From: Eledone cirrhosa
Taxonomy: Eukaryota
Assembly (NCBI GenBank): GCA_964016885.1
Contig: OZ024741.1
Span: forward strand, 63,178,001-63,242,000
DNA: 64,000 nucleotides
Direction: 5' to 3'
In this document: positions 1,973 to 62,064 of the stretch, one piece after another
Layout: each line of letters starts with the position of its first letter
How positions within the stretch are numbered: position 1 is the first letter of the stretch
The notes under the pieces: generated by a model
The model's database searches: none
The model's input: the letters and a program-made list of their open reading frames with translations, nothing else
What the model was told of the DNA's origin: nothing
Translations under genes and position numbers: made by a program

Positions 1973-2042
1973 CACGATCACAGCCAATCGTTGACCATCC
2001 ATTATCCAAATGTAGGGTAAGAAATAATAGGACAACCAGCAT
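1973..2042 (-). CDS. PDFR: Exon (ECL2-start of TM5) of the PDF receptor-like GPCR
   Basis: tttaaAG acceptor, GTAAAT donor; 70 nt, phase 2 to 0. Encodes (R)CWLSYYFLPYIWIMDGQRLAVIV, with the class B CW...WI..G motif. Confidence 0.88.
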
Positions 2043-2846
2043 CTTTAAAAAGGTGAAGTAAAAGAACGATGTATTAGTTTAACAGAGAATGGAAAGCTAT
2101 ACAATATATTTTATCGGTTCTAAGTCATCTAATTTGGCTATCGATTAAAATAACAGACTGCAGAAAATATTCTTTCTGTCTCTTATTCTTCTCGCCATAC
2201 TTTGTTGTTTTTTTCTCTCTCCTTTTCAATGTTGCTTTCTATCTCCATTTCAATCTTTCTTTCCCGCACCATCTTCTTACTCTCTCTTTTACATTCTCGC
2301 TCAGTCTTTCTAAACATTGTCCTATAATTATTTTTAAAAGATGTATCAACTTACAAGTAGATAATCAAAGGGAAATTTCCAATTAAATAAGGGCATATAT
2401 AACACACACATACAATCGTACATGTATGGTTCTATATATGGGAGAATGTATCTATCAATTTAACAAATTACATACATACCTACATACATAGATGCATACC
2501 CACGCCTTCTAACGTATTGCTAGTATATGCATGTATATGTAGATCTAAATGTATAAAAATGTCTATATGTATTTACATTATAAATACATATATATATAAA
2601 TGTGTGTGTGTGTGTGTGTCTGTGTTGTGTGTGGTTATGTGCGTGTGTGCGTTTGGCAAATAAAGAAAGCATTGATAAAGCAAGTATATAAGAATAACAA
2701 CTATATATAAATAGATCTAGAAAAGTGTAAAATAAGAATGACAATATTTATACCCTATATATTTTATATTTCAAGATTCAAAATTTTACTTTCTTTGTTT
2801 GCCTATATCAACAGAAACACAAACTTTGAAATAGCTTCCTATTATA

Positions 2847-2886
2847 GTCTTCTGATGAAGGGATTTTAATCCCGAAATATTAGGAC
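2847..2886 (+). ncRNA. Minimal type I hammerhead ribozyme
   Basis: gtctt CTGATGA a gggatt-tt-aatccc GAAA ta tt aggac; stem I gtctt/aggac, perfect stem II, vestigial stem III. Confidence 0.7.
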
Positions 2887-3002
2887 AGATGAATAACAGA
2901 TGAAACACTAACTTCGTTGCCTTTATTTATTCCAAACTCTACCTTTCATTTTGCATTGTCAGACTCATTGAATAATATATATATATTATAAGACCAGATT
3001 AA

Positions 3003-3053
3003 AGTTTAAGCAAAGAATTGCTGCTTTCACCCTTAACGGGATCTTCTGAAACT
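3003..3053 (-). ncRNA. Hammerhead-like motif with variant core CAGAAGA, in a truncated copy (about 2991-3150) of the 33727 family
   Basis: On minus: agttt CAGAAGA tccc gttaa gggt GAAA gca...tgc TT aaact. Confidence 0.55.
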
Positions 3054-3220
3054 AAAAATATCAATCTGTGGACGCAGAAGTAAATATTTCGAAAAGCGTT
3101 ACAATGGAAGGAAAACAGGAAGACCATACTTTGGTTCGTGAAGACGTACCCATATATATATATATAACAAATGTAAGGTCTGGTTTCTTGGGTCTGTCAC
3201 CATTTATAAAACAAATTTTG

Positions 3221-3281
3221 TATTTTATCTGATGAGAGCGGACCAAAATTTTGGTACCTTTGAAATATATGTAATAAAATA
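3221..3281 (+). ncRNA. Type I hammerhead ribozyme (same family as 29976 and 58149/58309)
   Basis: tattttat CTGATGA [stem II] GAAA tatatg TA ataaaata; 8-bp stem I. Confidence 0.8.
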
Positions 3282-58020: not shown

Positions 58021-58417
58021 AAGTTCTATTTAAATTGTTGAGATACAACAAGCAAATATTTTTATAACTGATATAAAGCACTCAACACATTATTGGAGTA
58101 AAAATACGATATATTAACAAATGGAAACTATATTTATAAAACCATATTTATTTCATTATACATATTTCAAGGACACCAAGTTAAATTATGGTGTGCTTTC
58201 ATCAGATAAAATATAGAGCAGTTTTATAAATATCCGGGAGCTTCCAACAGAAATGGTCGCATTCTTTAAGGGTATGTCAATATTTATTTATAAAACTGCT
58301 CTATATTATATTTTATCTGATGAAAGCACACCATAATTTAACTTGATGTCCTTGAAATATGTATAATGAAATAAATAAGGTTTTATAAATATAGTTTTCA
58401 TTTGTTAATATATCGTA
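58021..58417. mobile_element. Tail + fold-back (58105-58232 / 58286-58417) with hammerheads at 58149-58213 (-) and 58309-58373 (+)
   Basis: tattttat CTGATGA aagcacacca...tgatgtcctt GAAA tatgta TA atgaaata. Confidence 0.9.
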
Positions 58418-58442
58418 TATATATATATATATATATATATAT

Positions 58443-58860
58443 GTAGGAGGTGAGTTTTATTGTAGTACAATAAAGCAATGCAGATATCGGATAAGAAGCA
58501 CTCTATAGTTTGTAGGACTGGAGTATACATAATATATAAGATCAAAAGATGGTTAAAGGAGTTCCATGTATTTTATTATGCGCATTTCAAAAACAAACAT
58601 CATCATGCAATAATATTTGTGTTTTCATCAGATAAAACAGGAGGACATGATATGAAGGTTAAAAAACACTTGTGGATAGTGCAGTTTTATATGTTGATTT
58701 AAAACTGCACTATCCACAAGTGTTTTTTAGCCTTCCTATCATGTCCTCCTGTTTTATCTGATGAAAACACAAATATTATTGCATGATGATGTTTGTTTTT
58801 GAAATGCGTATAATAAAATACATGGAACTCCTTTAACCATCTTTTGATCTTATATATTAT
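58443..58860. mobile_element. Tail + fold-back (58529-58689 / 58700-58860) with hammerheads at 58570-58638 (-) and 58751-58819 (+)
   Basis: gttttat CTGATGA aaacacaaatattatt-gcat-gatgatgtttgttttt GAAA tgcg(c/t)a TA ataaaat. Confidence 0.92.
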
Positions 58861-59164
58861 ATATATATATATATATATATATATATATATATATATATAT
58901 ATATATATATATATATATATATATATATATATATATATATATATGTATATATATATATATACATATATATATATATACATATATATATATATATATATAT
59001 ATATATATATATATATATATATACATATATATATACATATATATATATATATACATTTATATATATATATATACATATATATATATATATATATATATAT
59101 ATATATATATATATATATATATATACATATATATATACACATATATATATATATATATATATAT

Positions 59165-59648
59165 ATAAAATATTAAACAAATAATGAATAAACAATTCCT
59201 TATATTAAACAAAAAAAGTTCATTATTTAACGATCGTTTCTAGGATATATATGTGTTAGAATTGGTATGCATATTTAACAGATCTATGTACAAAATTATA
59301 CAAAATTATACAAATTATCAAGATTAAATATACATACCAACACATATATACGCCGTCTTGATAATTTGTATAATTTTGTATAATTTTGTACATAGATCTG
59401 TTAAATATGCATACCAATTCTAACACATATATATCCTAGAAACGATCGTTAAATAATGAACTTTTTTTGTTTAATATAAGGAATTGTTTATTCATTATTT
59501 GTTTAATATTTTATCTTGACTCTGTATACCGTTTATCTTTCACCGAAAGTGATTTTTCATTACATCTCTTCTTTCCATGATATCCGGAATACATTGAGTT
59601 CTTCATACGGATTGGACACTACCGTAAACTCTTGGTAGATTTATCTAC
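59165..59648. mobile_element. Fold-back (59165-59323 / 59356-59514) + tail; hammerhead 3' half only
   Basis: 159-bp arms containing GAAA cgatcg TT aaataa. Confidence 0.88.
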
Positions 59649-61904
59649 ATATATATATATATATATATATATATATATATATATATATATATATATATAC
59701 ATTTATATATATATACACATATATATATATATATATACTTCAATATACGTATATATAAATATATATATGTGTTTGTGAGTATGTGTGTGAATACGGTTTG
59801 AAGTGAAATTAGGTTTTCTACTAATTTCTCACTTCGTAAGTTATAGTAATTTCTGTTGTTTAGTGAAGATGAAAATTTCAGATGTTTTTTTTTATACAAA
59901 TTCACATTGAACATATTTGTTATACAAACTTCTTTGTTTTGTTTTAATATTTCATATAACATCAAAGGATTTGTAGAAGTCGCTTTAATGTTTATACGCG
60001 CACAATAATTTGCTCTCTATCTCTTACACACACACACATACCCCCCCTCCCCCATACACACACAGACAGAGAATCATATGAAAACTCATTACGCAAATGG
60101 TACACTATCATTGTGCTTCCAGACGTTTATTGTTGTTTGCTTCTAACTACATCCTTATAGGTTATTTTATGTACACGGAATTGGGTAATATACGTGTTTG
60201 GTTGATCGCAGGCATTGTATACTTTCAAGATAATCTATTATTTTATATAATGTCTACGTAATCATATCAGAGGGGAAATGAGATACATTTAAAAGATGGC
60301 AAAATAATAGTTATCCTATTTGTTTCTTTATTTTATTGGATAGAGGGAAATCTATTTTTACAGCAGGATGAGTAGCAACAAGTAAATACTATTGACATTT
60401 AATCTGCTGATCCCGGGGGAAAAATGGAATTATTCAATTTATTGATTTGAATTAAGAAATCAATGGCCCAGCAAAAATGGCTACTTTAATGTTTGAATTT
60501 AGCAACATCGCAAACACATTTAATTGTTTTTTTGTTTTGCTTGCAAACGACACAATATTGTTGTAAAGGTACAACAAAATAGTGTATAGACATATCTCTA
60601 GAGAACAAATTATGTGACCTCCTCATTGATACACTAATATATTCTAAATATTTTATTTTGCATGGCGTATACAAATAAAAGCATCGTTAAGTTGGTGTTA
60701 ACATATTTAATGTACTGAACAATAAAATCTTAGTTTCCCGCACTGACCATTGAATTTAAATATGATAATTTACTCAATTTTTAGGAATAATACTTTTATC
60801 ACCACGTTGGCACATCGCTGAAAAGATATTAAAAAGAATGTAATATTTACGAAGTTGTTCCCAATAGTCATAATTATCTATTTAGGGCTAAAACCTTTTC
60901 TCATAGAAAGATTGATCTGATTCAAATCATTGTAGGACGTTCTGATCTGCAGTGTAGGATTGCATGTGAATAATTGTTTCTACTTTTGGCACAAAGCCAG
61001 CAATTACCCAGTGCATTACTGGTACTTTATTTTATCGTCCCTGTAAGGATGAAAGGCAAAGTTAACCTCGCGAGATTTGAACTCAGAATGCCAAGGGCCG
61101 TAACTCTATGAGTCAAGGCATGATGTCCGATCCTCTACTGATACTGCCAATCCACCGCCCCTGCTTTGCATGTAAATAATAATTATAAAATATACGATTA
61201 GCAACCAAATATCTTGAATATTATTGTCCTTATTTTTAAAGGTCAATACATAGTTACTTCCTTATATTTAATGAGATTCAATCTTGCTTGTTTAGATTTT
61301 GCCATTCGTATTTTAGTTGAAAATTAAATAACAATTAAATACTTGGGTCAATATAACAGATCGTCCTCAAGGACAAAAATGTGTAGCCTATGCAGGAAAG
61401 CAATAAGGTAGCAGATTGGCAGAATCATCGAACAAAATGCCTCGCAGTAATTTGTTAGGTTTATTTATATTTTGAATTCAAATATCACTGGAATCTGTTT
61501 TGAAATCTTTCATTATCTAAAAATATGATCATTTAAGTGTGCATGCATGGATATAAAACTCCTGGTTCATTCGTAAATGCGTCATCGTGATATAAGGCTT
61601 GTTTGGGCATCTTCTAAACATGGAGGATCCTACCTTCCCTCCAGATCTGAACATGGCTGAGAAGTAAGTGGCTCTAGAAGGAGAAGGATATGAGAAAGAG
61701 ATACAGTGGTAGATTTGACCCCCACTGCAGGACCTCAGCAGGTTTTGAACTCGGTACACAGAGAGCCGGAAAGAATAACGCAAGTTGTTCATATATATAT
61801 ATATATATATATATATATGTAATCATTTGTCTTCATCATACACATCAAGTTTTGTGTTATTCCCAAAGTTAGAAATAATTATCTTTGTTATAAAAGGAAC
61901 TTAC

Positions 61905-62064
61905 AATTGTAGTGATCACTGATAAACGGCCATAAATCATAGATGATTGACTTTCGTGCTGCGATACAATCTGATCAACGTATAGAAGCAGTCGTATTAT
62001 CACTTGTATGATCATGGCACAGAACAGGTTCTTGTGTATTCTAGTGCGGTGACATTTCAAACTT
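61905..62064 (-). CDS. PDFR: Exon (ICL1-TM2-ECL1) of a class B/secretin-family GPCR, PDF receptor-like
   Basis: Polypyrimidine tract + ttgcAG acceptor, GTAAGT donor; 160 nt, phase 2 to 0. Encodes SLKCHRTRIHKNLFCAMIIQVIIRLLLYVDQ..., matching the PDFR-type RT(R/K)IHKNLFxAMxxQVIIRLxLYxDQ signature. Gene symbol is by motif recognition only. Confidence 0.9.

Follow-up and report, generated by a model that had tools for sequence, protein, structure and literature searches.

Ribozyme-bearing hairpins in the introns of an octopus PDF receptor gene are head-to-head remnants of Penelope-like elements

How do the introns of a gene come to hold a whole series of hairpins with hammerhead ribozymes (HHRs) in both arms, and does the hairpin shape itself make these insertions tolerable? 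This question is raised by a stretch of 64,000 nucleotides from the 3.0 Gb genome of the octopus Eledone cirrhosa (G000:C2:63178001-63242000), which we refer to as the window and to which coordinates are relative unless a locus is named. It covers part of a PDF receptor gene on the minus strand. An initial annotation had proposed that the antisense arm of each fold-back is transcribed before the ribozyme, which is thereby sequestered in double-stranded RNA (dsRNA), and that this may explain why so many copies are tolerated. We find that the hairpins are head-to-head remnants of Penelope-like retrotransposons (PLEs), a known insertion shape, and that their hammerheads are motifs of the PLE pseudo-long terminal repeats (pLTRs). 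Considering all evidence, we regard it as probable that the hairpins are 5'-truncated PLE insertions whose shape results from integration, and that burial of the ribozyme in dsRNA is a by-product rather than the reason for tolerance.

A strict descriptor for type I HHRs found 12 matches in the window and none in each of 50 dinucleotide shuffles; these ribozymes have the core CUGANGA / GAAA / UH and three helices, with stem I open. At its gathering score, the Rfam hammerhead model had no match in the window, and by E-value no hammerhead was among the 150 of 256 matches listed; most of these came from miRNA models that hit hairpins or TA repeats, and they were dismissed as chance. Minimal PLE variants are usually detected by descriptor, as in PMC4209133 (here and below, statements on published work refer to the available part of each source). 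In an alignment of 18 copies, 12 from the window and six from other loci (16 distinct), 94.9% of the cells stay paired and 12 of the 16 pairs show two-sided changes, with the covariation falling in stems I and II.

Five fold-backs carry an intact HHR on both arms. In all five, the minus copy lies in the left arm and the plus copy in the right, just as the initial annotation had described, and it follows from this order that the antisense arm is made first on either strand. The placement of the fold-backs in introns of 10.9, 33.5 and 15.3 kb needs some correction: the 10.9-kb intron lacks fold-backs with full ribozymes and has just an antisense solo HHR at 3222, and one of the five (62553-63867) lies beyond the annotated range of 1973..62064, in the next intron upstream. 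The intron lengths themselves agree with those measured between the four exons in the window (10,852, 33,459 and 15,333 nt).

The identity of the elements became clear from an unrelated intron. There, a complete pLTR-ORF-pLTR element (ORF, open reading frame; L174:8270 to L175:2420) carries the HHR of the window family 58104-58418 in both direct repeats, has (TA)n on both sides and contains RWR, DKT and CxCX5C motifs as well as a GIY-YIG-type motif. HHR-bearing pLTRs around a single ORF with a reverse transcriptase (RT) and, at its C terminus, a GIY-YIG domain define endonuclease-positive (EN+) PLEs, as does an inverted 5'-truncated copy joined head-to-head at the 5' end, which is found here as well. 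Another HHR family lies directly 3' of an RVT_1 and GIY-YIG ORF in locus L124; several families are present, of which at least one, that of L124, rides on a non-Hydra PLE. Among the window families, the link to a PLE ORF is shown for that of 58104 only, and the assignment of the 13230, 16601 and 58524 families rests on shared anatomy. This includes a tail at one end only and (TA)n at the other, a PLE signature seen in the window fold-backs 16601, 58104 and 58524 and in most of 28 listed pairs; in 16601-17047, the extra tail-like sequence is at the left end and (TA)n at the right. Furthermore, the hammerhead sits about 50-100 nt from the element 3' end, within the pLTR, so that even very short copies retain it.

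The window also holds a broken PLE of its own (21216..24675). Both this relic and the L175 element show the motifs of the Hydra clade as defined in PMC8557442 (RWK, DKG->DKT, CxCX5C linker, (TA)n insertion), an assignment made by tblastn and motifs; Pfam did not recognise the Hydra-type RT. The 140-nt repeats of the relic contain GAAA-palindrome-UA and stem I without the canonical CUGANGA, possibly another core variant.

These features have close published parallels. Hydra-clade PLEs (PMC8557442) and PLE insertions (PMC3846280) share the pLTR-ORF-pLTR organization, RWK/RWR, DKT, CxCX5C and C-terminal GIY-YIG, and Hydra-clade PLEs also the (TA)n targets, the pLTR HHR, the head-to-head inverted 5'-truncated copy and the one-sided tail. 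The head-to-head order is the ‘most frequently observed’ arrangement of PLEs and has been attributed to self-priming (Arkhipova et al., 2013, PMC3846280); the copy that is inverted and 5'-truncated is joined to the 5' end, with the tail at one side (Craig et al., 2021, PMC8557442). The octopus copies differ in being mostly ORF-less palindromes of 200-1,300 nt with a very high copy number. Likewise, the ribozymes resemble the minimal HHRs of PLEs (Cervera and De la Pena, 2014, PMC4209133), which are of type I with a long stem II, a short stem I and a palindromic loop 3, include a U3-A8 core variant and occur in pairs, one copy on each strand and 100-700 bp from the other, as seen in Schistosoma; compared with these, the octopus HHRs retain a stem III of 2 bp and a palindromic loop of 4 nt. 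The available text of that study does not discuss order, masking or orientation in host introns. Structure and ribozymes thus belong to a known PLE kind.

Two other identities were considered and rejected. Non-LTR retrozymes (PMC7229834; bioRxiv 10.64898/2026.07.22.740005) are likewise non-autonomous and consist of repeats with PLE-related type I HHRs, but they are defined as head-to-tail tandems of intact HHR units that make circular RNA, whereas the window elements are mainly inverted pairs and the sole window tandem, with a 197-nt unit, has one mutated core. Retrozyme-like tandems do occur in this genome: at about 63,399,580-63,403,770 of G000:C2 (window-relative 221,581-225,773), a head-to-head array with a period of 310 nt comprises six intact HHR units on the minus strand and eight on the plus strand, and similar arrays were found in two other sampled genes. 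Miniature inverted-repeat transposable elements of DNA transposons were dismissed because the polarity here tracks the 3' end of a retroelement and the tail is one-sided.

The geometry is not peculiar to this gene. Genome-wide, divergent HHR sites outnumber convergent ones by 4,421 to 87, with about 9 expected at random; for either arrangement, the count covers a single spacing window of 31 nt that was selected to suit it. Among 50 listed convergent sites, many connect members of two different subfamilies. Of 52 paired intact HHRs in 23 unrelated genes, 51 have the antisense copy first, and with degenerate copies included, 139 loci have an upstream partner against 6 with a downstream partner only, which means that broken ribozymes retain the geometry. 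Since both outer ends of a fold-back are element 3' ends, the antisense arm comes first on either strand automatically, and no selection is needed. Among the listed divergent sites, fold-backs of one family are joined repeatedly, in different subfamilies, at one short self-complementary hexamer, which suggests a snap-back hotspot.

The elements are very abundant. One HHR superfamily pattern has 50,321 exact matches in the genome and none in the reversed control, and 1.76 Mb of other genes hold 104 intact ribozymes, compared with 1 in reversed control sequence. The sampled genes contain about 59 descriptor-intact HHRs per Mb, or about 175,000 if extrapolated to the genome; at 203 per Mb, the window is enriched about 3.4-fold. 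In 2.03 Mb examined, inverted repeats other than simple ones make up 3.8% of the bases (204 loci, about 100 per Mb); 146 of these loci abut (TA)n and 57 overlap an HHR-family copy, with 37% of the inverted-repeat bases at loci with a recognisable copy.

Palindromes of this kind might in principle be fold-back artefacts of assembly or library construction. Some arms are indeed 99-100% identical, and no independent contig among three aligned contig sets, which showed only a very high-copy family there, spans the whole of 16520-17040. Elsewhere, however, arms differ by up to about 14% and have a one-sided tail, the geometry tracks element polarity throughout the genome, every pair ends at element 3' ends, and the same structure has been published for PLEs of other animals. 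We therefore rejected this explanation as extremely improbable.

Are the ribozymes silenced by their partners? Four of the five full-ribozyme fold-backs were folded whole, the fifth being too long and omitted from this calculation. In all four, the ribozyme bases are predicted to pair with the other arm at a probability of 0.98-0.999, and stem I to form at less than 1e-55, i.e. masking would be complete and the proposed sequestration in dsRNA is borne out at the level of prediction. In a single arm, stem I is predicted at 0.61-0.86 (0.08 for the fifth) and stem III at 0.0003-0.11. Which arm comes first is probably of minor importance, as a ribozyme-first transcript with arms a few hundred nucleotides apart would also zip within seconds. 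At common elongation rates, zip-up would be faster than slow hammerhead cleavage.

There is perhaps little to neutralise in the first place, given the low predicted stem III together with published observations: PLE monomers that were inactive or depended on the element's protein, and splicing despite cuts. A minimal HHR of a metazoan PLE showed no monomer cleavage (PMC4209133), an anole PLE hammerhead cut only with the element's protein and left no reads ending at the site (PMC11167929), and introns cut by a slow hammerhead were still spliced (Dye 2006 and Fong 2009, summarised in PMC2995048). The in vivo function of PLE hammerheads is considered an open question (PMC8557442, PMC11167929).

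Moreover, the host gene itself retains at least four clearly unmasked intact sense ribozymes (window-relative 51410, 64134, 86115 and 148834), besides partly masked ones at 68560 and 109070. The first (51410-51469), which the initial annotation had missed, belongs to the 197-nt tandem, nested in (TA)n within an unrelated fold-back (51108-52016), and is a counter-example to masking inside the window. Masking is therefore not required for tolerance in this gene, and with the geometry being a standard PLE product genome-wide, we do not uphold the claim that masking explains tolerance.

The favoured course of events would be as follows. Integration of a PLE into (TA)n would yield short head-to-head palindromes, a structure that is observed, with the priming taken from the literature: self-priming or double priming into (TA)n may make an inverted copy. 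This 5'-truncated copy joins at the 5' end, which leaves 3' ends on both outer sides and gives the minus-left/plus-right order in or outside genes. A host read-through transcript is then predicted to form a long duplex that buries the ribozyme. Tolerance would come mainly from low monomer activity, with a stem III of two pairs, and from the splicing of introns despite slow cleavage. On top of this, unmasked sense copies may be mildly purged, to about 1:2, through either the ribozyme or a poly(A) signal.

Several observations weigh against this account. For a coral monomer, cleavage proceeded at about 0.8/min (PMC7229834), and the octopus HHRs, with a real palindromic stem III and loop and strong covariation, may have a higher activity than the schistosome minimal HHR that was assayed. 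In addition, the genome-wide pairs are counted irrespective of whether they lie in genes or between them. A further objection comes from the orientation of solo copies in introns, for which we sampled 1.9 Mb from 24 genes: 23 unrelated genes, with strand and span taken from ordered Pfam exon matches and chosen before the ribozymes were examined, and the remaining introns of the host gene. In the Pfam-inferred genes, a signal would be weakened by nested genes or by wrongly joined spans; spectrin-gene spans were kept outside the sample. In the 23 genes, raw intact solos number 11 sense to 35 antisense (p=0.0005), although the lowest p values stem from such uncollapsed counts and are not quotable alone. 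After collapsing by event, with masking defined by energy, 12 unmasked intact copies are sense and 30 antisense (binomial p=0.008, gene-level strand-flip p=0.055). Core-mutated copies show no lean (25:23, and 10:10 in an earlier classification), and a lean in intact but not core-mutated copies is a prediction of ribozyme-dependent selection.

Such selection is the essence of a rival explanation, a weak form of the model in the initial annotation, in which sense ribozymes cut the pre-mRNA often enough to be selected against, and fold-backs escape because the antisense arm sequesters them, making masking a selective filter by which fold-backs are enriched in introns. Besides the complete predicted masking and the 12:30 ratio, it could draw on a Fisher test of intact against core-mutated copies in an earlier classification (p=0.048) and on one pattern by which fold-backs per antisense solo are similar in introns (0.73, 8 per 11) and in an unselected C1 sample (0.79, 22 pairs per 28 solos per strand, counted by hand among 100 listed sites). 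Yet the Fisher value rises to 0.15 after event-collapsing, and with a 13-mer the ratio of fold-backs to antisense solos is 0.46 in introns, below the 0.85 of the C1 sample. The lean is reversed in the host gene's other introns (4-5 sense copies against 1 antisense) and in one channel gene (5 against 3), and 5'-truncated core-less copies are also antisense-leaning (1:6, then 3:7 when event-collapsed).

The ratio varies with the classification. The first, relaxed classes gave 7:33 for intact, 32:25 for degenerate and 8:15 for core-less copies (sense:antisense throughout). From the second classification onward, two doubtful query families were left out, which gave 10:32 for intact, 8:11 for weak-stem, 10:10 for core-mutated and 1:6 for truncated copies; the Fisher value of 0.048 belongs to this version. 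Event-collapsed counts with BLAST-defined masking and the host introns added, without the window, are 17:30 (p=0.079, gene-level strand-flip 0.23), and the energy-defined versions are 12:30, 16:31 and 17:33 (gene-level strand-flip 0.055, 0.14 and 0.10), the last being that of unmasked intact ribozymes in all 24 genes (p=0.03). A broader descriptor, restricted to multi-copy matches, gave 10:26 in the 23 genes and 4:1 in the host introns, with the U3-A8 variant at 3:0, and the 13-mer alone gave 5:13. The depletion of sense solos predicted by the initial annotation thus shows as a trend in the 23 genes. Across versions its gene-level p is 0.055-0.23, it loses significance at that level once events are collapsed and the host introns added (0.10-0.23), and it is reversed in the host introns; we consider the filter explanation unlikely.

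Alternatively, the antisense lean could be real but stem from further signals on the sense strand of the element, for instance a poly(A) hexamer, a promoter or splice signals, which the fold-back would mask as well. In general, intronic retroelements are biased antisense. In the main HHR family, AATAAA lies just past the cleavage site; unmasked copies with it are distributed 8:20 and those without it 9:13, and the lean of the core-less 3' fragments points in the same direction. Against this, core-mutated copies, many of which have the same 3' end, are unbiased, and all counts are small; we deem this explanation unlikely, slightly more so than the ribozyme filter. The 24-gene pilot gives a weak hint of selection on unmasked sense copies, confounded by AATAAA, and we continue to prefer the reading of the hairpins as integration products.

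Table 1. Features of the window (TM, transmembrane segment; ECL, extracellular loop)
Feature	Position	Strand	Details
Head-to-head fold-back	13230..13781		HHR minus 13305-13392 (host-sense), plus 13620-13707, both intact
Head-to-head fold-back, U3-A8 core-variant HHR	15714..16318		plus copy at 16132, right arm; minus homologue 15779-15905, left arm
Near-perfect fold-back, 223-nt arms, 1-nt loop	16601..17047		HHR minus 16650-16708, plus 16940-16998
Fold-back, degenerate HHRs	36786..36998		same minus-left/plus-right order
Short fold-back, degenerate HHRs, weak stems	52981..53167		junction at HHR 5' end; same minus-left/plus-right order
Fold-back, Hydra-PLE pLTR family	58104..58418		HHR minus 58150-58212, plus 58310-58372; tail left, (TA)n right
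Fold-back	58524..58865		HHR minus 58570-58638, plus 58751-58819; tail left, (TA)n right
Long fold-back, next intron upstream	62553..63867		HHR minus 62597-62665, plus 63755-63823
197-nt tandem, two host-sense HHRs, without antisense arm	51346..51738	-	intact 51410-51469; GAAA->GGAA copy 51607-51666
Solo intact HHR, antisense to host	3222..3280	+	HHR descriptor
Solo core-mutated HHR, antisense to host	15066..15209	+	
Solo HHR, intact core, weak stems, host-sense, unmasked	19144..19256	-	
Solo intact HHR, antisense to host	29977..30039	+	strict HHR descriptor
Solo HHR, intact core, weak stem II, antisense to host	45805..45869	+	
Broken Hydra-clade PLE	21216..24675	-	RT (RWK, DKT), CxCX5C linker, GIY-YIG at 24360-22022; 140-nt direct repeats 21216-21355, 24536-24675
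PDF receptor exon (ECL2/TM5)	1973..2042	-	tblastn; AG/GT borders
PDF receptor exon (TM4)	12895..12955	-	tblastn; AG/GT borders
PDF receptor exon (TM3)	46415..46571	-	94% identity to Octopus bimaculoides PDF receptor; 7tm_2 E 4e-14; AG/GT borders
PDF receptor exon (TM2)	61905..62064	-	tblastn with O. bimaculoides PDFR; 7tm_2 match; AG/GT borders

Apart from these features (Table 1), the window contains further (TA)n-bounded palindromes without a detected ribozyme (14653-14865, 20587-21139, 35748-36155, 41570-41802, 49717-50284, 51108-52016, 57136-57254 and 59180-59510), which probably belong to other PLE families or represent copies with a truncation point 3' of the HHR. A fold-back at 33722-34986 (with 2971-3140) has 394-nt arms (98%) and an HHR-like motif with CAGAAGA in place of CUGAAGA, in head-to-head order; a related sequence adjoins a PLE fragment in L175. 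In the family at 15714-16318 and 37157-37210, the core occurs as U3-A8 and as C3-G8, a case of natural covariation (the copy at 37164 was assigned by eye). The 10.9-kb intron also contains RT fragments of the long interspersed nuclear element type at 4711-6600 (+) and 7411-8400 (-). The coding exons of the host gene were placed from window-relative 159,491 down to -6,936 by tblastn with the O. bimaculoides PDFR, and at G000:C2:117.8-122.6 Mb at least 14 genes for 7tm_2 receptors, consisting of one exon each and having long open frames, are clustered.

In the literature searched, with subscription papers mostly outside, we found no account of an expansion of PLE-HHR palindromes in octopus, and none that describes PLE hammerheads in host introns as strand-biased or self-masking; this excludes supplements, and the HHR tables in those of PMC4209133 and PMC8557442 might list octopus. 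For Xenopus, retrozymes are reported to be relatively depleted from introns (bioRxiv 10.64898/2026.07.22.740005), and in the available text the words ‘orientation’ and ‘antisense’ have 0 occurrences, strand bias not being examined. Palindromic repeats, such as Xenopus Harbinger and lizard Penelope, are known ADAR substrates (Porath et al., 2017, PMC5625713): these self-folding repeats form long near-perfect nuclear dsRNA, to which the octopus fold-backs can be likened. The same study found octopus to be exceptionally rich in near-perfect dsRNA loci and hyper-editing; the source repeats are unnamed in its available text, octopus being outside the repeat-family analysis.

The octopus elements are therefore of interest in two respects. 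Their solo, tandem and self-masking copies with an intact core number more than 50,000 and allow a purely statistical test of whether these ribozymes cut RNA in cells, by contrasting sense with antisense copies in introns, intact with core-mutated and masked with unmasked ones. Furthermore, PLE palindromes are a candidate explanation for the abundance of near-perfect dsRNA and for the hyper-editing that have been reported in octopus (PMC5625713). The two may even be connected, albeit in a scenario that we regard as improbable at present: octopus PLE hammerheads would cut host pre-mRNA, unmasked sense copies would be purged to about 1:2, and self-silenced palindromes would accumulate and feed the dsRNA behind adenosine-to-inosine hyper-editing. 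If it were true that the ribozymes cut and the palindromes escape, tens of thousands of palindromes would have accumulated in genes as a main source of long nuclear dsRNA.

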